Positions 10,503 to 45,828 of a stretch of 64,000 nucleotides of DNA are shown here, piece after piece. Below the pieces are notes generated by a model. That model did no database searches and was not told the DNA's origin. It saw only the letters and a list, made by a program, of their open reading frames with translations. The stretch covers positions 10,270 to 74,269 of the IMG/VR virus record IMGVR_UViG_3300047447_000196. One strand, written 5' to 3'. The translations under genes and the position numbers were made by a program. How positions within the stretch are numbered: position 1 is the stretch's first letter; each line of letters begins with the position of its first letter. This DNA comes from a virus (taxonomy: Duplodnaviria > Caudoviricetes).

Positions 10503-10697
10503 CTATCTGAGCAGGCCCCAGCGCCGCAGGTGATCCAGCTTGGCCCTGGCCAGCCTGAGCCGGCGGGCCACCACCTCGCGGGCCGCTTCCAGCTCGACGG
10601 CGGTCACGGCCACCTCGACGCTGTGGATGCCACGCACCATGCGGTAGTAGACCAGACGCCCATCCTGGCGCTTCTCGTTGCGGATCTCCATGCTCAC
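10503..10697 (-). CDS. Hypothetical protein (64 aa)
   Basis: Start overlaps the terL stop. Confidence 0.6.
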   Translation of the reverse strand: MSMEIRNEKRQDGRLVYYRMVRGIHSVEVAVTAVELEAAREVVARRLRLARAKLDHLRRWGLLR

Positions 10698-12310
10698 ACC
10701 CCGTCGGCGTAGGTCTCGGGTTCCAGCGCCCGCTCGTCGATGATGATCGGCGGCACCGGCGACATGTCGTAGATCCGGCTCACCGCGTCGATCAGGTCCT
10801 TCTTCGAGCTGAACGGGTAGGTCAGGTATTCTTCGAGGAAACCTTTGTTGAGGCTGTAGATGTTCCCCTCGTGATCCCTGCGCTGCACCGGCTTGAAGAT
10901 GCGGAAGCCCTGGCCCTGTTCCCTGATGCGCTTCTGGTTGGCGGTCTCGCCCGTCACCACGGCGGCCATATAGAAGCGGCGGCTGATGAAGTCGGGCTGC
11001 AGCCTCTGGACCCTGTCGTCCTTGGCCTGGGCACCGTCGCTGGTCCAGTTCAGTTCGAGGATCTCGAAGGCGTCCTTGTCGCGGGTCATCTGCTCCTCGA
11101 AATATTCGAGGTCCGCCTGCATCCCGTAACGCTCATAGCCGAGGTAGACGGCCTGCACGCCCGGCTGGGCCATCCAGTACCGGCGCAGGCCTTTCAGGGC
11201 CTCCCAGCGCTCTCTGAGGCCCATCTTGTGGCGGTAGCCGTCCAGCAGGTACTTGTTGCCGCCGCTGTCGATCCCGACCACGGCCATCGCGGTGTTATCG
11301 GACCCCTTCTTCTTGCTGTGCGCCGGGTCGCACATGATGTAGACGTTGAGCGTGGCCGGGCGGATGTCCAGGAACGAGAGCCATTCCTTCTTGAACATCG
11401 CCTCATTGCCCGCTGCCGGGTTCATCAATTGCTGACACGCAATCGTGGCCGGCCCCTGCGCGAGCTTCTTGTCGGTCCAGGCCTGCTGGGTCAGGAACAC
11501 AGGGCGCCCGTCGGGGGTGCCGTCATGCGTGGCCGGGTACAGGCGCACCTTGAGGATCTTGCGGTCGATGATCTCCTGGTAGGTGTCCATGTAGCTGTAG
11601 CGGGTGCCGACGTGCCATGCCCGGATGCGCCCGTCCTCGCCGCGTGCGCCCAGGTTGTCCGAGAGTTCCCAGGCCGTGGTCGTCTTGTTGACCTGATCCG
11701 GGGTGCTGACGGACTCGCGCGTGACCACGTCATCGTAGACGCGCAGCAGAAAGTGCGCGCCGGTCGGCTGGCCGTCCACCAGGCCGTGCGCCTCGACCGT
11801 GGCCTCCTTCGGGTTGCTCTTGCGCTTGACCACGATGCCCTTCTCCTCGCTCCACTTGGGCGACTGGCCGCGTGGATCGCTGTAGAAGATGTCGGGGTAG
11901 ACGCTTTGCAGGTCGCGGTTCGCTTCCAGCTCCTGCTTGATCTGCAACAGGAACTTGCGGGCCACCGGCTTGGTGTGCGAGAAGATGCCGACCGTGACTT
12001 CCGGGTTCTGGATGATCTCGTGGATGATGCCCGCGAAGGTGATGACGGTCGATTTGTAGTGCTCGCGCGCCCACAGGTCCAGGCACCCATCGGGTTCGGC
12101 CTCGACCTCGCGGCAGCGCGCGTAGATCCACGGATGGATCGCATCGAGCCGGTGCAGCAGGCGGGTCAACAGATAGAACCTGTCATGCCTGCCCAGCCAT
12201 GCCTTGCCCTCGATGCCGTAGCGCGTCTCGACCAGCTCCCACAGGTCCGCCACCGCGTCAAACGGGGCGCTGTGCAGCGTGTCGCGGAACTCGTCAGGCA
12301 GGGTCAGCAT
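10694..12310 (-). CDS. terL: Terminase large subunit
   Basis: Walker A-like WAREHYKST, GAHF..RVYDDVV Walker B, RNase-H-like nuclease CDPA...SDNTA...KDLIDA; follows an HTH-bearing small subunit. Confidence 0.9.
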   Translation of the reverse strand: MLTLPDEFRDTLHSAPFDAVADLWELVETRYGIEGKAWLGRHDRFYLLTRLLHRLDAIHPWIYARCREVEAEPDGCLDLWAREHYKSTVITFAGIIHEIIQNPEVTVGIFSHTKPVARKFLLQIKQELEANRDLQSVYPDIFYSDPRGQSPKWSEEKGIVVKRKSNPKEATVEAHGLVDGQPTGAHFLLRVYDDVVTRESVSTPDQVNKTTTAWELSDNLGARGEDGRIRAWHVGTRYSYMDTYQEIIDRKILKVRLYPATHDGTPDGRPVFLTQQAWTDKKLAQGPATIACQQLMNPAAGNEAMFKKEWLSFLDIRPATLNVYIMCDPAHSKKKGSDNTAMAVVGIDSGGNKYLLDGYRHKMGLRERWEALKGLRRYWMAQPGVQAVYLGYERYGMQADLEYFEEQMTRDKDAFEILELNWTSDGAQAKDDRVQRLQPDFISRRFYMAAVVTGETANQKRIREQGQGFRIFKPVQRRDHEGNIYSLNKGFLEEYLTYPFSSKKDLIDAVSRIYDMSPVPPIIIDERALEPETYADGV

Positions 12311-12851
12311 CGGGCGCTGGCGCTCCTACGGGCTGTTGCAGGCGCTTCTTGAAGGCGGCGCGCAGTTCGGCGAAGCCGTCCGACACTTCGACCGTCACGT
12401 TGGTGTCGCCCTCGCCCGGATCGTCCAGCTCGCGGATCTTCCTGATCGTCTCCACCGCGATCTTGTTGGCCTCGACGATGGTCTTGACATCCTTGGGGTG
12501 ATCGACGCTGTCCACCATCGTGAGCAGCTTGCCCATGCTCTTGCGCGCCACAGCCAGGCCGGTGTTCATGTCCTGTACGTCCTGGGTGGCCTCATCCAGT
12601 TGGATTTGACGAACCGCTTCGTCATTCGTCAGGTCGTTCGTCACGGCCTCGTCAGTCAGTGACATGCCTGCCATTGCTTCCCGGACAAGTTCCCGCTTAA
12701 CATCACTGCTCCCCTTGATCCAGCCTTCCCGCTTGGCATAGCGGCGCAAGGTCGGTTCGGGGATGCCGTGCTTGGTGGCCAGCGCATTGATGCTGTACCC
12801 ACCTGCCGCGTAGTCGAGCGCCGCAGCACTGAAATCGTATTGAGTGGTCAT
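12294..12851 (-). CDS. terS: Terminase small subunit
   Basis: N-terminal HTH (YSINALATKHGIPEPTLRRYAKREGW), helical body, overlaps the terL start. Confidence 0.75.
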   Translation of the reverse strand: MTTQYDFSAAALDYAAGGYSINALATKHGIPEPTLRRYAKREGWIKGSSDVKRELVREAMAGMSLTDEAVTNDLTNDEAVRQIQLDEATQDVQDMNTGLAVARKSMGKLLTMVDSVDHPKDVKTIVEANKIAVETIRKIRELDDPGEGDTNVTVEVSDGFAELRAAFKKRLQQPVGAPAPDADPA

Positions 12852-12987
12852 GAGCTGTGTCCTTTGTGCATGTGTGACGGCATGCGCAATTGTGCGCCAC
12901 TATGTAGCATCATGCTATATACTATTTGTATGGGCCTGTGCGCCTACCTGTCCTCAAGTTACTCAACCATATCGAAAGGGTCAGATC

Positions 12988-13188
12988 GTGAAACACAAGG
13001 TGAAGAAGTTAGATGATGGTGACTTTGAATATCGCGGTGTCGAATTCACCCGCGTTGATCGCTTGCGCGGGTATAGCGATCACTACCGCACCTGCCGCAA
13101 GGTCAACGGTGTGCCGGTCGTTGCCGCGACCCGCCGCGAACTGCTGGCTGCGATAGACCGCAACCTCGATGGCGAGGGGGCCTTATGA
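12988..13188 (+). CDS. Hypothetical protein (66 aa, GTG start)
   Basis: AAGGG RBS-like sequence upstream; first gene of the second + island. Confidence 0.6.
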   Translation: MKHKVKKLDDGDFEYRGVEFTRVDRLRGYSDHYRTCRKVNGVPVVAATRRELLAAIDRNLDGEGAL

Positions 13189-13385
13189 AAAAGGCTTCCG
13201 TCTTCATTTGTGCGCGCTGCGGCCTCCCGGTCACAGCATGGCGCGACGGCTGGAAGCACTGCGCGAACAGGCACGGCGCATCGTGCGGGAAGCCTCCACA
13301 CGTCATCCGGCGTGATGACCCGCGTGATGACTCCACCGAGGCGGCGCTTGCCGCTGCCCTAGGCCGGACCAACAAGCAACCCTAA
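13185..13385 (+). CDS. Small Cys/His protein (66 aa)
   Basis: ATGA overlap; CxxC...HC...C. Confidence 0.55.
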   Translation: MKKASVFICARCGLPVTAWRDGWKHCANRHGASCGKPPHVIRRDDPRDDSTEAALAAALGRTNKQP

Positions 13386-13424
13386 GCGCCGCCCCAGCGG
13401 GCTTTGTATGGAAAGGAGCTACCG

Positions 13425-13925
13425 ATGAGCAAGACCAACGTAGTCGCGTTCCCCGAGGCGCAGCCGCGCCAGGACACCCGCCGGCAGCGCGAGGATGCGA
13501 CCATCCGCCGCGCCCTGTGCATCCTGTCGAACCGCATGCGCCAGCCCGGCCCGGCGATCAACAGCCCTGCCACGGCGCGCAGCTATGTGCGCCTGTACGC
13601 GGGTGAGCTGGAACATGAAGTCTTCTTGGTGCTGTTCCTCGACGCGAAGCACTGCCTGATCGCGCGTGAGGAGATGTTCCGGGGCACCCTGGTCCAGACC
13701 AGCGTCTACCCGCGCGAGGTCGTCAAGGCGGCGCTGGCCCATAACGCGGCGGCGGTCGTGCTGGCCCATAACCATCCATCGGGCAGGCCTGAGCCAAGCG
13801 AGGCCGACAAGTTGCTCACCCGCGCGCTGTCGCAGGCCCTGGCCCTGATCGACGTGCGCGTGCTGGACCACATCATCGTCACCGCTTCCGACTCGTATTC
13901 TTTTGCCGACCACGGCCTCATCTGA
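13425..13925 (+). CDS. radC: RadC-like JAB-domain protein (short, mobile-element type)
   Basis: [50 protein letters not shown]...T...RVLDHIIV; AAGGAG RBS. Confidence 0.95.
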
Positions 13926-13937
13926 AAGGAGATCGTC

Positions 13938-14849
13938 ATGCTACAGAAACCGCTTGTCGCCGCCCTACGCGACATCATCAGCAGTTCCGACGCCAACGAC
14001 GGCGATTCGCTCGCCGAAGCGATCCAGCAGGCCCGCAAGCTGGTCGAGAACCCGCCAGCCTACGACACCGATCAGGCAATACTCGACAACTTCATCAGCG
14101 CCCTGGCCGATCTCGGCTTTGGTGACGACGACGCGCCGGTCAACGGCGGCGATTGCGTGGACGCGATCTGCGAGTATTGGGACCGGCTGGCACCCCTGGC
14201 CTCGGAGTGGCCGCTGCCGCCCGAGCTGGCCCAGGTGCGCACCGGGCTGACCGTGGGCACCCGCGTGCTCTCCATCGAGGGCGAGACCTCGGACACCGAC
14301 CACGGCGAGCGCCACACCGGCCCCAACGCGATTGGCACCATCACCGGGATCGACGACACCGTCGAGCATGGGATCTGCTTGGCGTTCGAGCCTTCCGGCG
14401 TGTCGGTGCGGCTGTCCTGCGCCGAGCTGGCGGACGACCTGAAATACGAGATCGACCCGGAGACCTACTACCTGAGCCGCGAGGACGTTGTCGAAGTGGT
14501 CGAGCGCATGCTGGGCCACGAGGGGAATCACGAGCTGGCCGCGCGCGTGGTGGCGAACATGATCGAACAGGGGCAGGTCGAGCACAGCGAACGCGGGTAC
14601 ATGATCGAGCGCGACACCAACGTGTTCGAGATCGCTGCGGACCTCAAGGACGGCCCCTACCCTGCGCATCTGGCCCGCGCCGACCATCTGCTCAGCGCCC
14701 ACGAGCTGCGCGTGAAGTACGGCACCCGCAACGGTGGCGGCGAGCATCCGCGCTACCTGCGCAAGCACTGGCGCAACCATGTCGCAATCGAATCCACGAT
14801 CCTGGGCTACTGGCCGTGGGTCGAGGAACAGCTTGCACAAGAGGACTGA
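13938..14849 (+). CDS. Mosaic acidic hypothetical protein (303 aa)
   Basis: AAGGAG RBS, clean ORF. Confidence 0.8.
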   Translation: MLQKPLVAALRDIISSSDANDGDSLAEAIQQARKLVENPPAYDTDQAILDNFISALADLGFGDDDAPVNGGDCVDAICEYWDRLAPLASEWPLPPELAQVRTGLTVGTRVLSIEGETSDTDHGERHTGPNAIGTITGIDDTVEHGICLAFEPSGVSVRLSCAELADDLKYEIDPETYYLSREDVVEVVERMLGHEGNHELAARVVANMIEQGQVEHSERGYMIERDTNVFEIAADLKDGPYPAHLARADHLLSAHELRVKYGTRNGGGEHPRYLRKHWRNHVAIESTILGYWPWVEEQLAQED

Positions 14850-14899
14850 GCCAGTCTGAGCGCCTTGTACGCAGCGCGCTCAGGCGGGGGCCGTCCCCG
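14850..14899 (+). ncRNA. Two-hairpin intergenic motif, copy 1
   Basis: GCCAGT, stem CTGAGCGC/GCGCTCAG (14856-14883), single G, stem CGGGGG/TCCCCG (14885-14899), then the RBS. Confidence 0.6.
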
Positions 14900-14921
14900 A
14901 TTACCTGCAGGAGAGCCGAAC

Positions 14922-15368
14922 ATGCCCAAGAAAACCTACCGCGTGGTCCACAACGGGGTCGAGCACACCCGCAAGACCGACCGGACCTACACCCATGTGG
15001 TGCTGGTGCGCCGCGACTATCAGACCGAGCTGGCCGACACCGTCAAGGAAGCCCGCGAACGCGCCAGGAGGGAGCACGGCTATGCCGTCGAGCGCGCCAA
15101 CCAGCCGCTGACCGGGCGTAGCTGGATGACCGCCGAGGATCTCGCCGAGGACGCGCGCATCGCGGGCCTGCCACTCGAACAGTACGAGGCCGAGGTGATC
15201 GAGAAAGCCTGCGCCTACGTCGAGACCCGGCGCGCGAAAGGCGTGTTCGACCAGCCCGGCCCGCTCACATGGTGCGGCAGGCCGGATCTGGCCGCGAAGG
15301 AAGAAGCCAACGCGCGCAAGTCCGGGTATTGGGCCGAGGTGGTCGTCGTCGAGGTGCCGCAACCCTGA
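14922..15368 (+). CDS. Hypothetical protein (148 aa, MPKKTYRVVHNG...)
   Basis: AGGAG RBS; C-terminal part of track ORF 14865..15368. Confidence 0.75.
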   Translation: MPKKTYRVVHNGVEHTRKTDRTYTHVVLVRRDYQTELADTVKEARERARREHGYAVERANQPLTGRSWMTAEDLAEDARIAGLPLEQYEAEVIEKACAYVETRRAKGVFDQPGPLTWCGRPDLAAKEEANARKSGYWAEVVVVEVPQP

Positions 15369-15372
15369 CCAT

Positions 15373-15421
15373 GCCAGTCTCAGCGTCTCCGCAAGGGGGC
15401 GCTCAGGCGGGAATGGTCCCG
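15373..15421 (+). ncRNA. Two-hairpin intergenic motif, copy 2
   Basis: GCCAGT, 12-position stem with GCAA tetraloop (15379-15406), single G, stem CGGGA/TCCCG (15408-15421), then AGGAGG. Confidence 0.65.
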
Positions 15422-15437
15422 ACTACAGGAGGATGCC

Positions 15438-15905
15438 ATGACAACAACACCGCAAGATCCGCTGGCCGAGCTGCTGCGCGTGGTGAAGCAGTACGACGAC
15501 GAGGAGATCAACCAGCCCGAAAGCTGCCCGACCGGCACGGACTACAACAACCTGTTCTCGCTGGTCACGAGCTACATCGAGCGCGTGAACGCGCCGCTGC
15601 CCTCGACCGCGCCGAAGCAGGAGCCGCTTGCGCGGACCGTCTACGAGTGCCCGGACTGCGACTGGACCGGCACGATGGACCAGCTGAACCGCCTGAGCGA
15701 GATAGAGAACATCGACGAGCGTGTCGAACCCGGCGAGCTGGTCCCGGCTGGCTGCTGCCCTAACTGCGAGAGGCTGCTGCCAGTCGAGGATTGCAACGTT
15801 CCCCACCACACCCTGTACGAAGTCGGCCTGATCATGCGCCAGCGTGGCTGGACCGTGACCGCACCCGCAGATTGCCCATCCCTTGATACCGTGAAAGGAG
15901 CCTGA
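15438..15905 (+). CDS. Zinc-finger hypothetical protein (155 aa; CPDC...CPNC)
   Basis: AGGAGG RBS; two CxxC pairs. Confidence 0.75.
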   Translation: MTTTPQDPLAELLRVVKQYDDEEINQPESCPTGTDYNNLFSLVTSYIERVNAPLPSTAPKQEPLARTVYECPDCDWTGTMDQLNRLSEIENIDERVEPGELVPAGCCPNCERLLPVEDCNVPHHTLYEVGLIMRQRGWTVTAPADCPSLDTVKGA

Positions 15906-15907
15906 CC

Positions 15908-16057
15908 ATGAAACTCGTCGTGACCGCAAAAATCTACATCGAGGCCGAGGACGACACCGAGGCCGAAGCCGTAGTCCAGGCTGCGCTTGACAATATGGTG
16001 GGTGGCGACATCGACCTGACCGAAGTGATCGCCGTCGAAGTGGAGAGCCAATCATGA
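15908..16057 (+). CDS. Small acidic protein (49 aa, MKLVVTAKIYIEAEDDTEAEAVV...)
   Basis: Read manually; AAGGAG RBS. Confidence 0.65.
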   Translation: MKLVVTAKIYIEAEDDTEAEAVVQAALDNMVGGDIDLTEVIAVEVESQS

Positions 16058-16117
16058 TGCTCGCTTCGGGGCAGATCGGCCTGTGCGATAGCTGCCAAGA
16101 CCTGAAAGGAGGCTGAC

Positions 16118-16360
16118 ATGAACCAGCAAGCCCTGCCGCCCGACCCGGACGGCCAGAACGACGAACGCGCCGAATGGGCCGCCGAGTCGATCCGCACCTT
16201 CGCGCGCGTGACCTGCATGGACACCGCAAACGAGGACGACGACACGATCCTGGGCGACCTGCTGTGCGACCTGATGCACTGGTGCGACCGCGAGGGAATC
16301 GACTTCGACGCCGTGCTGGGGGCCGCACGCGAGAACTACGGCGCGGAAACCGCCGACTGA
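16118..16360 (+). CDS. Conserved mobile-element hypothetical protein (80 aa; DLLCDLMHWCD)
   Basis: AAGGAGG RBS; recognisable motif N..RA.WA...DLL.DL.HW. Confidence 0.8.
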   Translation: MNQQALPPDPDGQNDERAEWAAESIRTFARVTCMDTANEDDDTILGDLLCDLMHWCDREGIDFDAVLGAARENYGAETAD

Positions 16361-16364
16361 CAGC

Positions 16365-16412
16365 GCCAGTGCCAGCGCCTGCGATGCGGGCGCTGGTGCG
16401 GGGATTGTCCCG
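16365..16412 (+). ncRNA. Two-hairpin intergenic motif, copy 3
   Basis: GCCAGT, 12-bp stem GCCAGCGCCTGC/GCGGGCGCTGGT (16371-16397), single G, stem CGGGG/TCCCG (16399-16412), then AAGGAG. Confidence 0.65.
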
Positions 16413-16433
16413 GCAACCGCAAGGAGAACCAGC

Positions 16434-16856
16434 ATGGATCTGAAACTGACCGCAATCACGGCGGCGTTCGTGATGAATGGCCTGCACCGCGCCGACCTCG
16501 ATTACATCATGCAGGCGTACACCGGCGACGGTGGCCAGCTCGAACTGGTCGAGGGCGTCCTGGAATGGGTTCCGGCCATTCTGGCGCTGCGCGCTGCCGC
16601 CGACAGCATCGGCGTGGACTACCCCGGCGTGTTCGAGTATGAAGTCAGCTGCGAGTTCGGCCAGTGGCTCGGTGGCAGCATCATCGACGACGGCGACCTG
16701 CCCGACCGTGGGCACGCGATGGAGATCCTGATCGACCTGGTCGAGTCCTTCTTCCGCGTGAAGGACGATCCCGTCACCGCCCGCCGCCTGCGCGCCGTGA
16801 TCGACGCGGCTGCGGACAAGCTCATGGCCCCGCAAGCCGCCAACGACGGAGCCTGA
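16434..16856 (+). CDS. Hypothetical protein (140 aa)
   Basis: AAGGAG RBS, clean ORF. Confidence 0.75.
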   Translation: MDLKLTAITAAFVMNGLHRADLDYIMQAYTGDGGQLELVEGVLEWVPAILALRAAADSIGVDYPGVFEYEVSCEFGQWLGGSIIDDGDLPDRGHAMEILIDLVESFFRVKDDPVTARRLRAVIDAAADKLMAPQAANDGA

Positions 16857-16859
16857 GCC

Positions 16860-17177
16860 ATGCGCCGCCACCCCGTACAGGTTCGTCACCCGGTGACGAA
16901 GCGTGACGAACAGTTCGTCAACCCGCGCTGGTGGACCCCGAGCGGGGACGAGCGCCGCTACATGGCCGAGCGTGACCTGCTGCGCGCACCGGCCCGGCAG
17001 GAGCGGCCCATGTGGCCGTTCGTGCTGCTGGCCGTCAGCCTGGCGCTGGTCCTCGCCATCGACGCCGCGCCGCAACTGCGCGGTATCCTCGCTGACATCC
17101 CCTGGGCCAAGCTGTTCAACTATCAGCCCGTCTCGCCGATTGATCCCGGCGACCGCAACGGCCTGCTGCACAAATGA
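16860..17177 (+). CDS. Membrane protein (105 aa, one TM helix)
   Basis: WPFVLLAVSLALVLAI hydrophobic segment. Confidence 0.65.
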   Translation: MRRHPVQVRHPVTKRDEQFVNPRWWTPSGDERRYMAERDLLRAPARQERPMWPFVLLAVSLALVLAIDAAPQLRGILADIPWAKLFNYQPVSPIDPGDRNGLLHK

Positions 17178-17187
17178 AGGAGCGGAA

Positions 17188-17556
17188 ATGAAACGACCGA
17201 GAAACTACACCCCGACCAGCATCAGCCCGCACGCGGTGGGTTCGACCCGTATCTGCCATGCCTGCGAGGCCACGCTGGCCCAGGCGCAGATGACCGAGAT
17301 CCACCCGGTGCCGGGCCTGACCATGTACCGCTGCCCGGCCTGCGTCGAGCTGCTTGCGCGCGTGCTGGCCTACGCCAAGTCGCGCTGGTGCTGGGACGAC
17401 GCCGCCATGCTGGAAGAACTGTTCGAGCGCCACTGGGTGCGCGGCGAGACGGTGGACAGCTTCGTTGACGGCTGGGCCAAAGACTACGACCTGACCGACC
17501 CGCACGACGTCGGCCTGCAACCCGAGGAGACCCCGATGAAAGGAACCAAGCAATGA
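17188..17556 (+). CDS. Zinc-finger hypothetical protein (122 aa; CHAC...CPAC)
   Basis: AAGGAG RBS; C-terminal part of track ORF 16903..17556. Confidence 0.7.
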   Translation: MKRPRNYTPTSISPHAVGSTRICHACEATLAQAQMTEIHPVPGLTMYRCPACVELLARVLAYAKSRWCWDDAAMLEELFERHWVRGETVDSFVDGWAKDYDLTDPHDVGLQPEETPMKGTKQ

Positions 17557-17744
17557 GCGGCAGAGCATCCGCCGAAGTCACCAGGGCCGTCGCCATGCTG
17601 CGCGAGAGCGGCGGCACGATGACCGCCTACGCGGCCGCGAAAGCGGTCGGCATCGCCCTGTCAACCATCTACCGCTCGCCCCTGTACAAGGCGTACCGGA
17701 CCGAGCAGGACCAGTCCACCCACAAGCCAAAGGAGGAACCATGA
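17553..17744 (+). CDS. Small HTH DNA-binding protein (63 aa)
   Basis: TAYAAAKAVGIALSTIYR helix-turn-helix pattern. Confidence 0.7.
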   Translation: MSGRASAEVTRAVAMLRESGGTMTAYAAAKAVGIALSTIYRSPLYKAYRTEQDQSTHKPKEEP

Positions 17745-18217
17745 AAAAGCGAAACCCGGAAGTCTGGCACCGTCTAACCAGTACGCACTCCAGCATGGAC
17801 GACATGATCGCCCGCTACGGCTGGGCCGTGCAGGGCGTGTTCGGCAGCGATACCAGCCCGACGTTCAGCTACACGGTCGGGCTGGCCGCGAAGGGCCTGC
17901 CCGAGATCGTGGTGTTCGGCCTGCCGGCGCAGGTTGCGCACCAGTTCCTGAACGACCTGGGCCGGCGCTTCACCAGCACCGGCGTGCCGCCGCTGGACAC
18001 CGACCTGACCGATATCGCCGAGGACTACCCGGCCCGGCTGGTGCCGGTGCCCCGCGCCGAGGCCGACAAGTACATGTTCGCCACCAAGCACCGCTACCCG
18101 GCCTACACGGCGGTGCAGCTCGTTTGGGTGGACACGAACAGCCTGTTTCCCTGGGAGTCGGGGTTCGATCCCGACCTCGCCCTGAAACAGCCGATCCTGC
18201 GGGACCGGCTTCACTGA
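17741..18217 (+). CDS. DUF4262-family protein
   Basis: IARYGWAVQGV...FSYTVGL...GLPEIVVFGL...QLVWVD...FPWE. Confidence 0.85.
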   Translation: MKKRNPEVWHRLTSTHSSMDDMIARYGWAVQGVFGSDTSPTFSYTVGLAAKGLPEIVVFGLPAQVAHQFLNDLGRRFTSTGVPPLDTDLTDIAEDYPARLVPVPRAEADKYMFATKHRYPAYTAVQLVWVDTNSLFPWESGFDPDLALKQPILRDRLH

Positions 18218-18229
18218 AAGGAGCAAGCC

Positions 18230-18580
18230 ATGAACGACTCGATCACGCGGCTCGACTACTTCGCCGCCCATGCGCCGACGGCGATTCCCGACTGGTTCAA
18301 GCCCGAAGAACCGGAGTACAACGGCCCGGCCTACCCCACCCTTCCCGCCGGCATCCCGGAGGAGGACCGCAAGATGATCGCAAGCTGGGAGAGGGACCCC
18401 TGCTTCGACCTCGACGGCGAATACGCATGGTTCCAGCAGGACGTTGAAGCCTACCGGGCGGCGATGAGGGATCACAAGGAGCGGATCGCGGTGGAGCGCT
18501 ATCTGCGGTGGCCGTGGGCCTACGCGAAAAGCATGCTGCTCTGGTGCGACGTCTACACCGTCCAGAAGGAGCCGTCATGA
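18230..18580 (+). CDS. Hypothetical phage protein (116 aa)
   Basis: AAGGAG RBS; LDYFAAHAP..IPDWF...WPWAYA motif typical of phage hypotheticals. Confidence 0.75.
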   Translation: MNDSITRLDYFAAHAPTAIPDWFKPEEPEYNGPAYPTLPAGIPEEDRKMIASWERDPCFDLDGEYAWFQQDVEAYRAAMRDHKERIAVERYLRWPWAYAKSMLLWCDVYTVQKEPS

Positions 18581-18792
18581 GCCAATCCCTCGTCACCATC
18601 ACGGCCACGATGGAGGACCCGGTGGCGTGGGAGCTGGCGCAGTTCTGCAAGCGCAGCACCTTCGACATCTTCTACGACCTGACCGAAGCCCACCTGAGCC
18701 ACGACGAGCGAACCGCCCTCGCCTACCGCATGATTCGCGGGATCGAGCTGGTCCAGCGCGCCCTGGCCGAGCAGGGCTATTCACCACGCTAA
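18577..18792 (+). CDS. Conserved small mobile-element protein (71 aa; LAQFCKR...ALAEQGYSPR)
   Basis: ATGA overlap, AAGGAG RBS. Confidence 0.75.
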   Translation: MSQSLVTITATMEDPVAWELAQFCKRSTFDIFYDLTEAHLSHDERTALAYRMIRGIELVQRALAEQGYSPR

Positions 18793-18804
18793 CAGGAGAA
18801 CAAC

Positions 18805-19365
18805 ATGACTTCAATTCTGACCATCAAGGGTTCGACCAGCACGCAGCAGATCGAGGACGCGATCCCCTACACCGACATGCGCCGCCACGCCATCGAGCGC
18901 CGCGACGACGCCGCCGCAGTGATCGCCGAGCAGGGCGACCAGGACGTGCTGGAACTGCACCAGATCGACGGCGTCGATGTGCTGTACTCGCCGACCTTCG
19001 GCTACGCCTACGTCAACGCGCAGTCGGGCGGCATCGGCGACAGCATGGTGATCGACAACGGCGAAGCCGCGTCAGCCGAACATGCCGCCCTGGTCTGGCA
19101 AACCCGGAACGCCCCGGAAGGCGCCATCTTTGAATTCACATGGCGCAACAAGTTCCTCTGCACCGACGTCGAGAGCATTGGAGGGTTCCGCGACAAGCTG
19201 GCCGAGGCCGTCGCCACACTTGACCGCTGGATGGCCGCTGGCGTAACCCTTGACGAGTTCAGTGGCATCGAGGACGACTACGCCACCTTCCAGACCACGA
19301 ACAAGGAGTTCGCGCTGGCAGAAGGCTTTCATCTGGCCCAACCGGATGAGGAGGACGACGACTGA
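18805..19365 (+). CDS. Acidic hypothetical protein (186 aa)
   Basis: AGGAG RBS; last gene before the terminator. Confidence 0.75.
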   Translation: MTSILTIKGSTSTQQIEDAIPYTDMRRHAIERRDDAAAVIAEQGDQDVLELHQIDGVDVLYSPTFGYAYVNAQSGGIGDSMVIDNGEAASAEHAALVWQTRNAPEGAIFEFTWRNKFLCTDVESIGGFRDKLAEAVATLDRWMAAGVTLDEFSGIEDDYATFQTTNKEFALAEGFHLAQPDEEDDD

Positions 19366-19383
19366 ACCGCCCCGCTCCGTGTG

Positions 19384-19407
19384 AAGCCGCCTGCGGGCGG
19401 CTTTTTT
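19384..19407 (+). terminator. Rho-independent terminator ending the radC island
   Basis: AAGCCGCC-TGCG-GGCGGCTT followed by a T-run, between convergent genes. Confidence 0.85.
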
Positions 19408-19729
19408 ACGTCCGCAGCCGGCCAACGCAGGGCATGTCCCACTGCGCGCGCAGGCCCTCGCCGGCATCGGCGACGATCCGGGCCACATAGCGCGCCCCTT
19501 CCACCAGGGCGAGCGTGAACGGCAGCGTGGCGCGGTAGACGCCGTTCGAGTCGGCCAGGTACGGCATGGCGAGGGGCCAGTCGGTCCCGGCCACAGGCAG
19601 GCCGGCGGCATCGTACAGCGCGACCGATATATTCGCATCGGTCACGTACTCGCCGCTGGTCTCGTTCTTCAGGCCCGTCACATCGACGATGCTGTTGTTG
19701 CCTAGATAAAGGATGTGGATCGTGCTCAT
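19406..19729 (-). CDS. Probable virion structural protein (107 aa, beta-sandwich-like)
   Basis: Beta-rich; coupled to the upstream fibre-like gene. Confidence 0.65.
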   Translation of the reverse strand: MSTIHILYLGNNSIVDVTGLKNETSGEYVTDANISVALYDAAGLPVAGTDWPLAMPYLADSNGVYRATLPFTLALVEGARYVARIVADAGEGLRAQWDMPCVGRLRT

Positions 19730-22203
19730 CAGTCGGGCCTCAAGTCAGCGCGCCCGGACAGGACGGCGCGCACGCGGGTCGGCGCGTCGAGCGCAGTATG
19801 GAGTTCGGTCGTACCGGCCAGCACCGGGTGCAGGCGCTTCGCCCCCAGCGTGAGCGAGCCGGGCTTCGGCACGTAGTGTTCCAGCACGCCGCGCGCGCTT
19901 TGCCGGTCCTGGGCGGTCTGGACGGCCACGTCCACGCCGACCACCAGCAGGTTGCCGTCGCCGATGTGCTGGACCTGCCCGAGCTGGATCTGGCTGTCCG
20001 CTGCCACGCCCGCCTGCAGGGCGCTGGTCTGCCCCTGCATGGTGGAGGCCGGCGCATCCGACGACAGGCCGAGCACGCCACCTGTGACCTGCGCCTGCCC
20101 GCTCTCGACCGTGTTGACGGCCTCGGCGCGCGCCTGGGCGCGCACGCGCTGGCGGTGGCCGGTGAAGGCGCTGGCTTCGATGGAGACCGCGCATTCCGCG
20201 GCGGCGCCCTGGCCCTGCCCGGTCGCCACGACGGTCGGGCTGTCCACCCCGGCCACGGCAGTGACTTGCTGGCCCTGCAGGGTCATCACCTCGGCGACGT
20301 AGGCGCTGGCAATGGCCGCGCTGGTGCGCTGGGCGCTGGCGGTGCCGGCGCTGGCGTCGAGGCTCAGGCCGAGCTGGCCGATGGCCGACTGTGCCTGGGC
20401 GCTCGTGGCGCTGGCGTCGAGGCTGACTTCGGCGGCAACTGCTGCCTGCTGGGCCTGCGAGGATGCCGCGCTGGCGGCAGCGGAGACGCCGGCCTCGGCA
20501 GTGCTGGTCTGGCCCTGGCTGGTGGCGGTCTGGCCCGGCTGGAACACGTTGGCCTGCGCGCTGCTGCTCTGGCCCTGCGCGGTGGCGGCGTTGGCGACCA
20601 GTCGGGCGCCGGCGGTGGCGGCTGCGTGCTGGCCTTGCGCGCTCGTGATCGCGGAACCGGCCCCGACCGATGCGGCGGCGCTGCTTTCCTGCGCCTGCCG
20701 GGTGCGGCCGGCCAGGCCGGTCTGGTCGGTGAGCGATGCCACGCCCATCACGCGCCGCCCGTACCCGTCGCCGGTGTAGGAGACCGGGGTCGATGCCAGG
20801 ACCGCGTTGTTGATCCGGTAGCCGTCGCAGCCGTAGCCGCCCTCGGCCTGCGTGACCGTGAACGCCGGGCTGATGGACGAGATGTAGTCGCCCCAGTCCG
20901 TCGTCGCCGCCATCGCCATGAAGCCTGCGCCGCTGGTGGCGATCGCCGGGGTGGCGATGGTGTAGCTTTCGGCGGTGTTGATCTTCGTTGCCGAGGCGTC
21001 GATCTGGGCAAGGCTCGGCGACTGGACGTAGTAGACGACCTGGTAGCGCGGGCCGAGGGTGACGCCGAATTCGACCGTGATGACGTTGGCTGTTGCCGCC
21101 GGCACGTTCAGCGCGGCGTACCAGCTGACCGACGCGCCGTGGCCGGCCACGTCCGCCACGCTGGTGATGAGCTGGTAGGTGTTGCCGGCGGTGTCCGTCA
21201 CCGACTGTGGCGTGTACCACATGCGGTTGTAGACGCCGACCAGGATCTGGGTGCCGTCCGCCACGTCGCGCGCCGGCATCACCGACTGCGTGTAGGTGTA
21301 GTCGTCGTCTTCCTGGAATACCCGATCCAGCAGCACCCACGGCGTGACCGCGCTGGCCTGCGCGCTGCTGCCCTGCGCCTGGCTGGTGCTGGCGCTGGTG
21401 GCCGAGCTGACGCTGGCGCTGGCCGCGCCGTGCTGGCCCTGGCTGGTGGCGACGCTGGCGCTGACGCCAGTCGAGGCTGCGGCGCTGGCGGTCTGGCCTT
21501 GGCGGGTGGTGGCGACGACATCGCCGACACTGGTTGCGGCGGCGCTGGCGCTGCTGCTCTGCCCCTGGCTGGTGGTGACAGTTGCCGTCACGACGTTACT
21601 GCTGGAGAACGCCTTGACCTGCCCCACCGCCGACCAGCTCTCGTTGGCGCGGGTGTACTTCGTGGTCCAGGTCGAGCCGTCGTCCGAATACTGGAGCTGG
21701 AAGTCCTTCGGCGATTCACCCGGTTGCCAGCAGGTCAGCGCGAATTCGACGACATCCTTGGCGTTGCCCGCGCCGAAGTCGTAGCCGATCCACTGCGGCA
21801 ACGCAAAGGTGCCCTGGTTGATGTACCAGGTGGTGCTGGTCGTGTCGTCGAACGCCTTCGCCGCCTCGAAGCCGCCGGTCTGGTTCGAGTAGATTGCCGT
21901 GCCGCCGACGCACTGGTCGGCCCCGCCGACACTCGCGCGGAACTCAATCTCGGACGTGTCCAGGTGGGGCGTGCCGGTGGCCGCCGTGATGTAGACGCGC
22001 CAGTAGCGGTGCGGGGTCACACCGGGGCTGGCGCTGCTCTGCGCCTGGCTGGTGGCGACAGTGGCGCTGATGCCGGTCGCGCCGACGGCCGCGCTGGACT
22101 GGGCCTGGGAGGTGGTTCCGGTCGGACTGCCCGAGGTCGATGCTGTAAGGCCTGGCTGCGCCCCGATAGGTGATTCTGAAAGGGCGCTATGACCTAACGG
22201 CAC
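19729..22203 (-). CDS. Virion fibre-like protein (824 aa): ~20 TxQ(A/G)Q repeats, discoidin/F5-8-like carbohydrate-binding domain and a second beta domain
   Basis: HRYWRVYI..EIEF...AFD....W...PQWIGYDFG...SPKDFQLQYSDDGSTWT is discoidin-like; 20-aa periodic Ala/Ser/Gln repeats. Confidence 0.8.
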   Translation of the reverse strand: MPLGHSALSESPIGAQPGLTASTSGSPTGTTSQAQSSAAVGATGISATVATSQAQSSASPGVTPHRYWRVYITAATGTPHLDTSEIEFRASVGGADQCVGGTAIYSNQTGGFEAAKAFDDTTSTTWYINQGTFALPQWIGYDFGAGNAKDVVEFALTCWQPGESPKDFQLQYSDDGSTWTTKYTRANESWSAVGQVKAFSSSNVVTATVTTSQGQSSSASAAATSVGDVVATTRQGQTASAAASTGVSASVATSQGQHGAASASVSSATSASTSQAQGSSAQASAVTPWVLLDRVFQEDDDYTYTQSVMPARDVADGTQILVGVYNRMWYTPQSVTDTAGNTYQLITSVADVAGHGASVSWYAALNVPAATANVITVEFGVTLGPRYQVVYYVQSPSLAQIDASATKINTAESYTIATPAIATSGAGFMAMAATTDWGDYISSISPAFTVTQAEGGYGCDGYRINNAVLASTPVSYTGDGYGRRVMGVASLTDQTGLAGRTRQAQESSAAASVGAGSAITSAQGQHAAATAGARLVANAATAQGQSSSAQANVFQPGQTATSQGQTSTAEAGVSAAASAASSQAQQAAVAAEVSLDASATSAQAQSAIGQLGLSLDASAGTASAQRTSAAIASAYVAEVMTLQGQQVTAVAGVDSPTVVATGQGQGAAAECAVSIEASAFTGHRQRVRAQARAEAVNTVESGQAQVTGGVLGLSSDAPASTMQGQTSALQAGVAADSQIQLGQVQHIGDGNLLVVGVDVAVQTAQDRQSARGVLEHYVPKPGSLTLGAKRLHPVLAGTTELHTALDAPTRVRAVLSGRADLRPD

Positions 22204-22215
22204 GTCAGTCTCCTA

Positions 22216-24042
22216 TCATGCCCACTCGTACTGGACTTCGCTGCTACCGTAACTGCCAGAACCAGCAATATTCAGGGTAGTTGAGGTAGTCAGCACCTGA
22301 ACATCCAGTACGTCGCCGGCCGCTACAGTGATCCACCCGCTGCTGATGGTGTTGCCGGTCTCGTCAACTCCAAACAGCGCATTGAATCGGAAGGCAACGT
22401 TGTTTTTACTGAGGCGGTGATACCTGCTACCAGTATTGTTCCCGGCCCACACGATGTAACTCGTGATGCGAACCCTGGTGTATCCGGTCGGGACGGTGAC
22501 TTGGGTCGGGGTAGAGGACGAGAACGCACCAACATCATCCTGCACGTTCGTATCGTACGAAACCTTGACCCAGGTGCCTTGCGTGATGGACTGGCTGGCG
22601 GCCAGCTTCAGGGTCGTGAGAGCAGGCAGGGTCGTATTTTTCCATGCGCTACCAACGTAGGCATAGAGAGCCTTTTTCGTCGAGTCGTAGACCATCGGGA
22701 CCGTCCCGACAGGGACGCTGGCGGGCGTGCCGGTCGGCGTGCCCGCGCAAGTCGGCAGGCAGGTAAAGCCGCCGATCGCGGTCGTCGCCAGCGCCGCGCC
22801 GGAGCCGTTGAGGACGACATTACCCGGCGTGCCGGTTCCGGTTGCCGCGCCGGGGGTCAGGGTGACGGAGCCGCCGTTCTTGTTCGTGCCAACACCCGCC
22901 GCGCCCGCAATGGCGACGGCGCCGCCATTGCCCGCCTGCGGTGCGCCGCCAGTGATGGTGACATTGCCGCCTGCGCCTGCGACATTGCCGCCCTGCCCGC
23001 CAGTGACCGTGACGGAACCGCCGCCAGCCGATTGCTGGTTTCCGCCTGCGTCACCACCCTTGACAGTCACGTTGCCCGGCACGGTCGTACCACCAACCGT
23101 GCTTTGGGTGGAGTTGCCGCCACGGATCGTTACGCTGCCGCCGCCGTTCTGGTTGCCACCGTCCCCACCACGAACGATGGCTTGACCGGGAATGATGGTA
23201 TCGCCACCAGCCACCAGCGCCGCCCCCCCCGAACCACCGGTGCTGCCTGTGCCACCCTGCACGGTTGCCTGTCCACCTTGCTGGCTAATGCCGACGCCAC
23301 CGAGCAGCTTTACCTGCCCGGCACCATTATCATTACCAATCGTGATCGTGCCTGCCGCGCTGAAGTAGGAGGAACCGCATTTGATCGTGATGTCGCCACC
23401 AGCAGCACCCGCACTGTTACCGGAGAAGCCGGACTGGATGGTGATGCTGCCGCCCCTGCCGCCGCCAGCGCTGGCATCAGCGCCGTAGAGGTAGAGGTTG
23501 CCTTGCCAGCTGGCGCCGTTGCCGACACCGGACTTGATCGTGACATCGCCACCCTGCCCGGACGAGGAACCGCCCGATCCACCCTGCACCGTGAGCGAGG
23601 TGCCGGTACTGGTGGTCGACGACGGGGCCAGGCCTTGCAGCCTGGCGCTGCCGCTGGCGGGGCCGACGTAGAGGATGTTGTTCACCCTGTCCCACGTCAG
23701 GTTCGTCGGATCGGCCAGCAGGCCCGCCTGCGATGCGGCCAGGTCGATCCAGACCTGCTTGGTGCCCGCAGCAAAGTTGACGGCGGCCCCCGCATTGCTG
23801 GAGGCCAGCACGGTCGTGCGGGTGAGGGTGTTGGCAGCCGAATAGGTGCCGAGACCGACTTCCCAGTCCCCGGTCGGTGCGCCACCGCTGTCTACCGCCT
23901 GGATGCAGTAGTAGCAGGTATCGTTCACCGAACACGCGCTGGAGAACGCCGAGAAGCCGGTCATGGCCCCGGACAGGGCCAGCGCGCCGGTGCCTGTGGT
24001 GGCAGTCGTTTCCTTGACCCTATCCTTGATCTGCAAAGTCAT
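22216..24042 (-). CDS. Tail fibre protein (608 aa) with glycine-rich repeats and a C-terminal jelly-roll-like tip
   Basis: N-terminal DRVKETT.TTGTG...WEVG.GT...TL.RTTVLASSN.G..V.F.AGTK.V anchor typical of phage fibres; about 12 GG(S/D/N)(V/I)T(I/L)xGG repeats. Confidence 0.85.
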   Translation of the reverse strand: MTLQIKDRVKETTATTGTGALALSGAMTGFSAFSSACSVNDTCYYCIQAVDSGGAPTGDWEVGLGTYSAANTLTRTTVLASSNAGAAVNFAAGTKQVWIDLAASQAGLLADPTNLTWDRVNNILYVGPASGSARLQGLAPSSTTSTGTSLTVQGGSGGSSSGQGGDVTIKSGVGNGASWQGNLYLYGADASAGGGRGGSITIQSGFSGNSAGAAGGDITIKCGSSYFSAAGTITIGNDNGAGQVKLLGGVGISQQGGQATVQGGTGSTGGSGGAALVAGGDTIIPGQAIVRGGDGGNQNGGGSVTIRGGNSTQSTVGGTTVPGNVTVKGGDAGGNQQSAGGGSVTVTGGQGGNVAGAGGNVTITGGAPQAGNGGAVAIAGAAGVGTNKNGGSVTLTPGAATGTGTPGNVVLNGSGAALATTAIGGFTCLPTCAGTPTGTPASVPVGTVPMVYDSTKKALYAYVGSAWKNTTLPALTTLKLAASQSITQGTWVKVSYDTNVQDDVGAFSSSTPTQVTVPTGYTRVRITSYIVWAGNNTGSRYHRLSKNNVAFRFNALFGVDETGNTISSGWITVAAGDVLDVQVLTTSTTLNIAGSGSYGSSEVQYEWA

Positions 24043-44406: not shown

Positions 44407-45486
44407 ATGAGTGATACGACTCCGCAGCAGCGCGCGGTTGAGCAGAAGGTCAAGGCCAAGTCGATGGAGGCGGCCTTGAAGGTCTACGCCCCGCAGCAGC
44501 TGCCGTTCTGGCACGACGAGACCCGCGCGATCGCCAACGAGCTGACGCGCTGCGGGCTGATCTCGTGCCGCAGCGGCGGGGTCCCGCGCCGCTACTTCGA
44601 CAACGAGAAGCTGTTCTCGACCGGCAAATCGACGGTCTTCTACAAGGGCGAGGAGCTGCGCGGCAACGACGAGGAGACCTTCTTGACGCTGGTGCACATG
44701 CTGCGCGAGGCAAAGGCCGGCAAGCTGGTCGTCAGGACCACCAGTGCCGAGCTGTGCCGCCTGAACGGCTGGGAATCGCGCCAGGTCTACTACAACGAGA
44801 TCTACAAGTCGGTCCAGCGCCTGTCGGCGGGGTCGCTGACGATCTACTCGCGGCGGATCAGCAAGATGCGGCGCTACCAGAAGGCGCGCGATGCCGGCGT
44901 CAACGAGGCCGAGCTGGCCCGCCTGTGGGACGAGATCCGCCAGGAGGAAGACGACAGGCCGGACGACGAGGACGACGGCCAGCCCGGCAACGACGAAGCC
45001 GAGGGCGAAGGCCTGATCGTCTCGATGGTCGGCAGCCGGATCAAGTTCGAGGGATCGACCGGGCTGGTCAACAAGATCCCGCAGGGGAACCTGACCTGGG
45101 AGATCCCGCTCGAGGAGGAGATGGTGTTCCTGTTCGCCAAGCAATGGCTGACCCTGATGCCGCAGCCGTCACGCCGGAAGCTCAGCACTGGCGGGCGCCG
45201 CCTGCAGGCCTACTACATGGGCCACCGGAAGCCGTATGCCGTGCTGGTGAGCACGCTCGCGGGCGTGCTGCAGCTGGACGACAGCAAGGGCAGGATCAAG
45301 GAGAACAAGCGCATCGTCAAGAAGCGCCTGCAGGAGCTGGTCGACGCCAGGGTGCTCGACTCGTTCGAGCTGGACGAAGGCCTGGGCGACGTCCGCGTGC
45401 ACGTCAAGCGCGGCGCCATGATCGACCAGGCGCGGCTGGAGATCGACGCCGCCACCGAAAACGACACACCGGAGCAGGCCGGATGA
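44407..45486 (+). CDS. Plasmid replication initiator, TrfA-like (359 aa)
   Basis: QLPFW.D..RAIANEL.RC.L...R.Y.....V.YKGEELRG.DE..FL.LVH; followed directly by iterons. Confidence 0.8.
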   Translation: MSDTTPQQRAVEQKVKAKSMEAALKVYAPQQLPFWHDETRAIANELTRCGLISCRSGGVPRRYFDNEKLFSTGKSTVFYKGEELRGNDEETFLTLVHMLREAKAGKLVVRTTSAELCRLNGWESRQVYYNEIYKSVQRLSAGSLTIYSRRISKMRRYQKARDAGVNEAELARLWDEIRQEEDDRPDDEDDGQPGNDEAEGEGLIVSMVGSRIKFEGSTGLVNKIPQGNLTWEIPLEEEMVFLFAKQWLTLMPQPSRRKLSTGGRRLQAYYMGHRKPYAVLVSTLAGVLQLDDSKGRIKENKRIVKKRLQELVDARVLDSFELDEGLGDVRVHVKRGAMIDQARLEIDAATENDTPEQAG

Positions 45487-45828
45487 GCCTACTTATCCAC
45501 AGAAAACGACACACCGGCCACCGAAAACGACACACCTGGGCGCGCAAGGCGACCGAAAACGACACACCGGCACCAGAAAACGACCCACCCTTTACCGATA
45601 ACGACACACCGTTTACCGATAACGACACACCGGGGGGTGTGAATAACGGACAAGATATCAACAACTTAGGCAACTTATCCACAAGCGTTAACCTTCTTTT
45701 GAACCTTCTTTTAAACCAAAGAGGGGGTAGCAGTAAAAAAGCGCTGCCAACCAACATGCACGGTGGGTCGTTTCCTTAAAGTTGACTTTACAAATTGTTT
45801 AACTGCGGCTTGACGTAAACGACACACC
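45457..45828 (+). repeat. Iteron array of the plasmid origin (oriV)
   Basis: G(A/T)(A/T)AACGAC(A/C)CACC 14-mers start at 45457, 45502, 45523, 45555, 45576, 45597, 45618 and 45815; mostly 21-bp period. Confidence 0.9.
45493..45712 (+). promoter_or_regulatory. DnaA boxes and AT-rich unwinding element of oriV
   Basis: Perfect TTATCCACA at 45493-45501 and 45675-45683, flanking most iterons; AACCTTCTTTT x2 (45690-45712). Confidence 0.85.

Follow-up and report, generated by a model that had tools for sequence, protein, structure and literature searches.

The intergenic element described here, present in three copies in an accessory operon of an uncultured virus, is a single irregular hairpin of ~21 bp and ~70 nt that encloses the stop codon of the gene upstream of it, and not a pair of hairpins. 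The DNA analysed, which we call the window and whose coordinates are used throughout, is a stretch of 64,000 nucleotides (bases 10270-74269) from a 74-kb IMG/VR record, IMGVR_UViG_3300047447_000196 (Duplodnaviria; Caudoviricetes), with 66% G+C and an estimated completeness of 74%. The fold is constrained on the coding strand, and related phages appear to have swapped genes at the element. The original prediction, made from the letters alone, had described the element as two adjacent hairpins under selection for pairing, and had proposed four possible roles for it: a factor-independent antiterminator, an RNA processing or stabilizing signal, a promoter folded from single-stranded DNA (ssDNA), and a recombination handle.

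The three predicted co-oriented copies (Table 1) are the only matches to the exact pattern in the 74-kb record, and the reversed control gave 0 matches. Their GCCAGT motifs start 0, 4 and 4 nt after the stop codons of the preceding genes, in agreement with the predicted distance of 0 to 4 nt, and the start codons after copies 1, 2 and 3 lie at 14922, 15438 and 16434. The gap of 16-31 nt between helix and start codon contains the ribosome-binding site. Using a covariance model built on the copies found by pattern, the three copies were recovered with E values from 5e-11 to 1e-14, while the next best match in the window had an E value of 0.06. The exact pattern is also present in 18 other viral contigs. 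The model recovered 45 copies there plus eight near terminase homologues, so that the homologues anticipated by the original prediction amount to 53 copies, with 47 distinct sequences, in ~25 related viral contigs. Four complete genomes and one 82%-complete genome carry 3-5 copies each according to the model. Within a genome the copies sit within ~3 kb of each other, on one strand and nowhere else, in an operon beside the terminase genes, and all of them are co-oriented with the open reading frames (ORFs) on both sides.

When representative bacterial genomes were scanned with the pattern, at least 120 matches were obtained, with no credible copy among the matches listed. The covariance model gave two weak, sub-threshold scores among these listed matches (32.2 and 27.1 bits, versus 39-75 bits for real copies). 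We treated the matches as chance, with no host-wide spread among those listed. A looser pattern applied to viral contigs yielded mostly chance matches and one additional divergent copy, L240. With filters off, the element was not found in contig L153 (IMGVR_UViG_3300046474_000370), whose terminase is 82% identical, nor in more distant relatives. The region upstream of the L153 terminase carries ordinary U-tailed terminators between the genes of the equivalent operon, and this contig provides a natural comparison without the element.

Rfam, including its radC and Mu-gpT-DE families, gave 0 matches at gathering scores over the whole window. At E<=10, the region 12200-19800 gave two sub-threshold matches only, neither of them at an element. 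The view of the element as an uncatalogued, structure-constrained cis element is thus upheld, by the missing Rfam match together with the sense-strand wobble bias described below. A sub-threshold likeness to Mu-gpT-DE at 18761-18807 (+), scoring 18 bits versus 49 required (E 2.1), is probably due to chance; this site comprises a small hairpin, a ribosome site and then the start of an ORF at 18805.

Covariation was analysed in alignment A5, which holds the 47 distinct copies in 90 columns. The upper hairpin is well supported, as predicted: compensatory changes occur in 9 of its 12 pairs, 93% of cells are paired, none of 500 shuffles reaches the observed values, and slid partners are paired in only 38-48%. 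This is not the case for the proposed second hairpin, CGGGR...YCCCG, as none of its five pairs is changed on both sides and its bases covary instead with the stop-codon region upstream. A GAC is conserved at -7 to -5 from CCAGU (36-38 of 42 copies), and this GAC plus the next two bases pairs with the "loop" and the 3' arm of the supposed second hairpin; in copy 2, for example, GACCAU (15367-72) is complementary to AUGGUC (15413-18). Pair 10-74 occurs as AU (18 copies), UA (8), CG (5), UG (3) and GC (2), pair 11-73 as GU (21), GC (13) and AU (9), pair 9-75 as CG (40), UA (4), AU (1) and UG (1), and pair 7-77 as GC (41), CG (2) and AU (1). CC.GU pairs with GC.GG around a fixed A.G mismatch in columns that are essentially invariant, and the G thought to lie unpaired between the two stems pairs with the U of CCAGU. 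No distinct copy departs from C15, A16 and G17 of CCAGU, from any base of GCGGG or from the A.G mismatch; within CCAGU, C14 differs in one copy and U18 is C in four.

RNAalifold, unprompted, predicted a single extended hairpin. This fold is the more stable one in 47 of 47 copies (means of -37.5 versus -30.7 kcal/mol for the two-hairpin fold) and is essentially the minimum-free-energy structure. For copy 1 it is that structure, at -30.4 versus -25.7 kcal/mol, and the values are -34.3 versus -28.2 kcal/mol for copy 2 and -39.3 versus -34.2 kcal/mol for copy 3. Over the whole extended fold, 13 of the 22 pairs show both-side changes, a level reached in 0 of 500 shuffles, and pairing is 90.5%, compared to 35-44% for slid partners. 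The hairpin consists of a 5-bp basal helix, a small internal loop, 2 + 2 bp around the A.G mismatch, and a 12-bp upper stem. A continuation of the basal helix into the upstream codons was considered and dropped, being inconsistent on inspection of the alignment. Three copies in relatives carry an insertion of ~20 nt at the tip of the upper stem, which forms its own helix; the apex is therefore free to vary. These copies are L006:6462-6539, L149:7394-7471 and L149:6185-6262. Their insertion loops contain ACAGG (ACAGGAG in two and ACAGGCA in the third) and resemble the ribosome-site region downstream of other copies.

Across the helices, G.U pairs outnumber A.C pairs by 134 to 10, or by 48 to 9 when two fixed U.G columns are left out. 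The wobble pairs had already been taken as the mark of a single-stranded fold, and their excess over A.C shows that the fold is selected on the coding strand. It forms on the mRNA or, less simply, on top-strand ssDNA. The stop codon within the helix occupies one of two registers, either directly after GAC or overlapping it as U-GA-C. As both registers lie inside a conserved stretch, the stop is always 1-2 or 5-7 nt before CCAGU. UGA is used at 28 copies, UAG at 9 and UAA at 4. Since all three stops are used, and each downstream gene has its own ribosome site and start, selenocysteine insertion, read-through and ribosome bypassing were rejected. One copy, L010:5148-5207 (-), has three overlapping TGAC units in its 5' flank, which give stops in all three frames, and has CACAGT in place of GCCAGT.

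The comparison of relatives called for by the original prediction places the element at cassette boundaries where gene content differs. At least ten gene families occur directly downstream of copies, and gene order varies among relatives. Between its first two copies the window has a single gene; two relatives have this gene together with an additional one, and three relatives have two different genes there. In one relative the genes of the window are found in a different order. Many blocks of homology between the window and its relatives start or end within a few bases of an element. The density of breakpoints is highest at elements (33 per kb), lower at other gene boundaries (22 per kb) and lowest elsewhere (7.5 per kb), these counts being non-independent. 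Orthologous elements are 93% identical on average, and the flanking coding DNA is 80% (upstream) or 74% (downstream) identical; copy 2 is identical in three other contigs even though its flanks are only ~78% identical. Identity of the element beyond that of its flanks indicates purifying selection on its sequence, recent exchange, or both.

We favor, tentatively and at a rough probability of 45%, the reading that the element is an intercistronic processing or stability signal of the type found in the T7 early region, possibly with a ribosome-driven switch, and with cassette exchange as a consequence. It is favored because the fold is on the sense strand, has the size of an RNase III substrate, lies at cistron junctions and must be opened by the ribosome. 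The element would act in cis on the polycistronic mRNA of the accessory-gene operon, provided that transcription runs through it. With about two helical turns, the hairpin has the size of an RNase III substrate, and cleavage there would separate the cassettes on the message. At the embedded stop codon, a terminating ribosome would melt the 5' strand of the hairpin; the freed 3' strand might then fold anew as the small CGGG...CCCG hairpin, directly before the next ribosome-binding site, and the element could thus be bistable. The small hairpin is in any case a possible alternative fold: its 3' arm, CCCG, is no part of the long helix, yet its conservation exceeds 90%, as would fit a second fold. 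Invariant CCAGU and GCGGG segments would be expected if these serve two mutually exclusive pairings. Since the same ~70-nt sequence brackets unrelated genes, it would also be a site of homologous exchange, through which cassettes of one to three genes could be shuffled among related phages.

Several observations weigh against this reading. RNase III has little sequence specificity, and the invariance of CCAGU, GCGGG and the A.G mismatch in 47 copies is therefore not explained by it; a dual-fold constraint or a sequence-specific binding protein would explain this invariance better. The small hairpin shows no covariation of its own. The excess of breakpoints at elements is real but modest, being ~1.5-fold over other gene junctions. 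Finally, the predicted accessibility of the ribosome-binding site did not change when the 5' strand was masked (0.50 versus 0.52). The simplest benefit of a switch, translational coupling, is thus not seen, and the simple model in which the ribosome site is unmasked was rejected on this ground.

In its more specific form, the processing signal would be a ribosome-actuated bistable RNA junction: the long hairpin, as the ground state, would hide the upstream stop codon, and the terminating ribosome would flip it to the small hairpin, a switch that would decide whether the message is cut or how the downstream cistron is protected or loaded. We regard this form as doubtful. If it were true, the module would bring its own stop codon in two registers, so that any ORF recombined in front of it would be correctly terminated, and it would be an RNA-level counterpart of the integron cassette boundary that works without a recombinase of its own, and one case of a broader class of phage gene junctions that is as yet undescribed.

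The invariance of the central motif argues for the sequence being read by something, which makes a specific RNA-binding protein the main rival. The element would then be an operator for a phage or host protein that recognizes CC-A-GU / GC-G-GG and co-regulates all cassettes, for example as a translational repressor or stabilizer, like T4 RegA or the RNA-phage coat protein. The central segments are invariant in the distinct copies while neighboring helix positions covary freely, orthologous copies are more conserved than the flanking genes, and an apex that tolerates 20-nt insertions is expected if recognition takes place at the base. However, no partner candidate emerged, as there is no RNA-binding family among the operon proteins and the zinc-ribbon ORF gave weak leads only, and the invariance can also come from the need to satisfy two alternative folds; we consider such an operator unlikely. 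A module acting on DNA, which promotes gain, loss and exchange of cassettes in the manner of the promoter-early stem-loops (PeSLs) and has little RNA function, would account for the differing gene content and order between copies, for homology blocks that begin and end at copies, and for identical copies whose flanks share 78% identity, in line with recent exchange. Homologous exchange needs identity and no fold, however, and does not call for stems with compensatory changes and 134 G.U versus 10 A.C pairs. Five genomes have neither a tyrosine recombinase nor a Y1 transposase gene, and the enrichment of breakpoints over ordinary gene junctions is only modest. This module is, in our estimation, less probable again. 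The processing or stabilizing signal and the recombination handle are the two proposals of the original prediction that remain as best fits, the former with cleavage as a putative step.

The other two proposals are not supported. An antiterminator RNA of the HK022 put type, which rides on RNA polymerase without a protein factor, is suggested by the look of two stems one base apart, by the early-type operon, and by the lack of a U-tail. We consider it highly improbable, as covariation and RNAalifold favor one long hairpin instead of two stems, the 3-5 copies are 1.9-3.5 kb away from the sole candidate promoter region, and the number of terminator-like sites in the operon (5 versus 4.0 expected by chance) is at chance level. 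An ssDNA site, either a recombination site of the attC or REP kind or a hairpin promoter of the Frpo/N4 type, is the least probable of all. The conserved base, the variable tip and the position at the 3' end of co-oriented promoterless genes do resemble attC. However, the active form of attC is the bottom strand and that of hairpin promoters lies on the template strand; the wobble bias points to the coding (top) strand, and a fold on that strand rules out both hairpin promoters and attC-type sites. The stem has no promoter hexamers, all copies belong to one operon, and the representative-genome matches listed (at least 120 matches in all) include no credible copy. PF00589 (integron-type integrase), matched in 14 of 14 control genomes, and PF01797 (Y1/RAYT transposase) are both absent from the five genomes, of which four are complete.

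Other identities were tried and rejected. As far as the sequence goes, the element is not a terminator, since there is no U-run after either hairpin, as the original prediction had also noted. A sigma-70 promoter was rejected for lack of -35/-10 hexamers in the stem, which also holds against the ssDNA promoter, and a sigma-54 promoter on the opposite strand has a spacing that does not fit. A CRISPR-repeat mimic (an RNA anti-CRISPR) is at odds with stems that differ within one genome and with a would-be handle that pairs with the stop-codon region.

By gene content, the source looks like a phage-plasmid. Phage marks include the large terminase gene at 10694-12310 (-) and tail proteins at 19729-24042, and plasmid-type functions in the window include ParA, ParB_N, a TrfA-domain protein, 21-bp iterons, a resolvase and Fic/Doc. 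The TrfA-domain ORF and the four to seven 21-bp iterons that follow it occupy 44407-45635. No tyrosine integrase was found in the record of the window. Among the related records, four are complete at 98-118 kb, two of these having terminal repeats. A BLAST search of the operon against plasmids and isolated phages gave no match, and the terminases of isolated-phage relatives are all <=31% identical, with no close isolate. An ORF of >2736 aa at 55760-64000 (-) combines a Strawberry-notch-type helicase (AAA_34 + Helicase_C_4) with an LPD39 domain; it is a giant polyvalent protein, a type that is co-delivered with phage or conjugative DNA. Other domains among the ORFs of the window are an RNA polymerase alpha C-terminal domain, an H-NS C-terminal domain, the HAD domain of "Swiss Army Knife" RNA-repair proteins, and a RecA-dependent nuclease.

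The plus-strand accessory operon adjoins the terminase genes and diverges from them across an AT-richer gap. It consists of two small ORFs, a RadC-like JAB protein and then more small ORFs, with its end near 19365; in Pfam and NCBIfam, this run of small ORFs has no known family except for one DUF4262 protein. Of the sequence upstream of the elements, this gap alone is a candidate for a promoter region. A sigma-70 consensus scan of 12200-19800, gap included, gave 0 promoter-like sites at the scan threshold. The family of the 155-aa zinc-ribbon-like ORF is the commonest gene directly downstream of an element. Its functional leads are limited to a weak, unreliable Atlas similarity to Lar-type restriction-alleviation proteins, and a search by way of this family led to the same lineage only.

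Table 1. Elements and neighboring features of the accessory operon (window coordinates)
Feature	Position	Strand	Details
AT-richer divergent gap	12852-12988	.	between terminase small-subunit-like gene (-) and accessory operon; sequence read
303-aa ORF, unknown function	13938-14849	+	last codon GAC and stop inside copy 1; no Pfam/NCBIfam family
Element copy 1	14844-14899	+	sequence read; covariance model 55.5 bits, E 5e-11; GAC 14844-46; stop UGA 14847-49; CCAGU 14851-55; upper stem 14856-14883; GCGGG 14884-88; GUC 14893-95; alternative small hairpin 14885-14899
148-aa ORF, cassette between copies 1 and 2	14922-15368	+	slot filled by other genes in relatives
Element copy 2	15367-15421	+	sequence read; covariance model 67.2 bits; stop UGA 15366-68 overlaps GAC 15367-69; CCAGU 15374-78; GCAA loop; GCGGG 15407-11
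Cassette between copies 2 and 3	15438-16360	+	155-aa ORF, 49-aa ORF, 80-aa ORF
155-aa Cys-rich zinc-ribbon-like ORF	15438-15905	+	two invariant Cys pairs
80-aa ORF	16118-16360	+	last of cassette before copy 3
Element copy 3	16359-16412	+	sequence read; covariance model 71.2 bits; stop UGA 16358-60 overlaps GAC 16359-61; CCAGU 16366-70; upper stem 16371-16397; GCGGG 16398-16402; GUC 16407-09
140-aa ORF	16434-16856	+	downstream of copy 3

No parts of phage genomes change faster than the accessory and anti-defence gene arrays, and outside T4 (with its PeSLs) and T7 (with its RNase III sites) there is little understanding of how their genes are expressed jointly and yet exchanged singly. The element provides a clean example, open to testing, in a lineage of uncultured high-GC phage-plasmids: its fold is well supported, its helix includes a stop codon, a second conformation is plausible and the turnover of cassettes at its copies is clear. 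Should the switch or the cleavage prove true, it would be a compact part for insulating cistrons in synthetic operons and an aid to recognizing cassette boundaries in metagenomic phages.

The closest design is that of the RNase III signals of the T7 early region, R0.3, R0.5, R1, R1.1 and R1.3. Both recur as irregular hairpins that have internal loops and span about two helical turns; both sit between the cistrons of a long phage message of the early type (a transcript that we infer in the present case), fold on the sense strand, and are neither promoters nor terminators. However, there is no sequence relationship between them, and the element differs in having a stop codon inside the helix, an invariant central motif and an alternative small hairpin, with cleavage being putative. 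Among hairpins that follow stop codons, the REP elements of E. coli are reported to stabilize upstream mRNA and, when within ~15 nt of the stop, to stall ribosomes. The element shares with them a stable post-stop hairpin in an operon that is met by the terminating ribosome. REPs, in contrast, are dispersed over host chromosomes in their hundreds and go together with RAYT transposases, whereas the element is confined to one phage operon and has no RAYT. Integron attC sites likewise form hairpins whose pairing is imperfect, whose base is conserved and whose tip varies; they stand at the 3' end of co-oriented cassettes, often overlapping the stop codon, and the order of their cassettes varies as well; the element differs in having no integrase, no RYYYAAC/GTTRRRY core sites (alignment A5) and a fold on the opposite strand. 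Hairpin promoters of the Frpo/N4 type differ in that the element folds on the coding strand and lacks hexamers.

The put RNAs of HK022 consist of two stem-loops, occur once per early promoter, either immediately or ~270 nt downstream of it, and act over at least 10 kb (PMC9378689). The two stem-loops of put meet at a bifurcation, and put suppresses termination by binding the zinc-binding domain of the RNA polymerase beta-prime subunit. The put RNAs and the element are ~70-nt structured elements of nascent RNA in early-type operons of temperate phages, although the two stem-loops of put are promoter-proximal and the element is one long hairpin in many copies far from the candidate promoter region. 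The PeSLs of T4-type phages combine a strong sigma-70-like promoter with a terminating stem-loop (PMC2839356, PMC4122927). Like the element, they are short conserved repeats between small non-essential genes of a variable region, at which insertions, deletions and replacements occur between related phages, a junction feature that the element displays too; in contrast to PeSLs, it has no promoter hexamers or U-tract and is constrained as a sense-strand fold. As a sequence family the element is new, with no catalogued family and no literature match. Its design resembles T7 RNase III sites and PeSL junctions, and it differs from both in the defining features of each.

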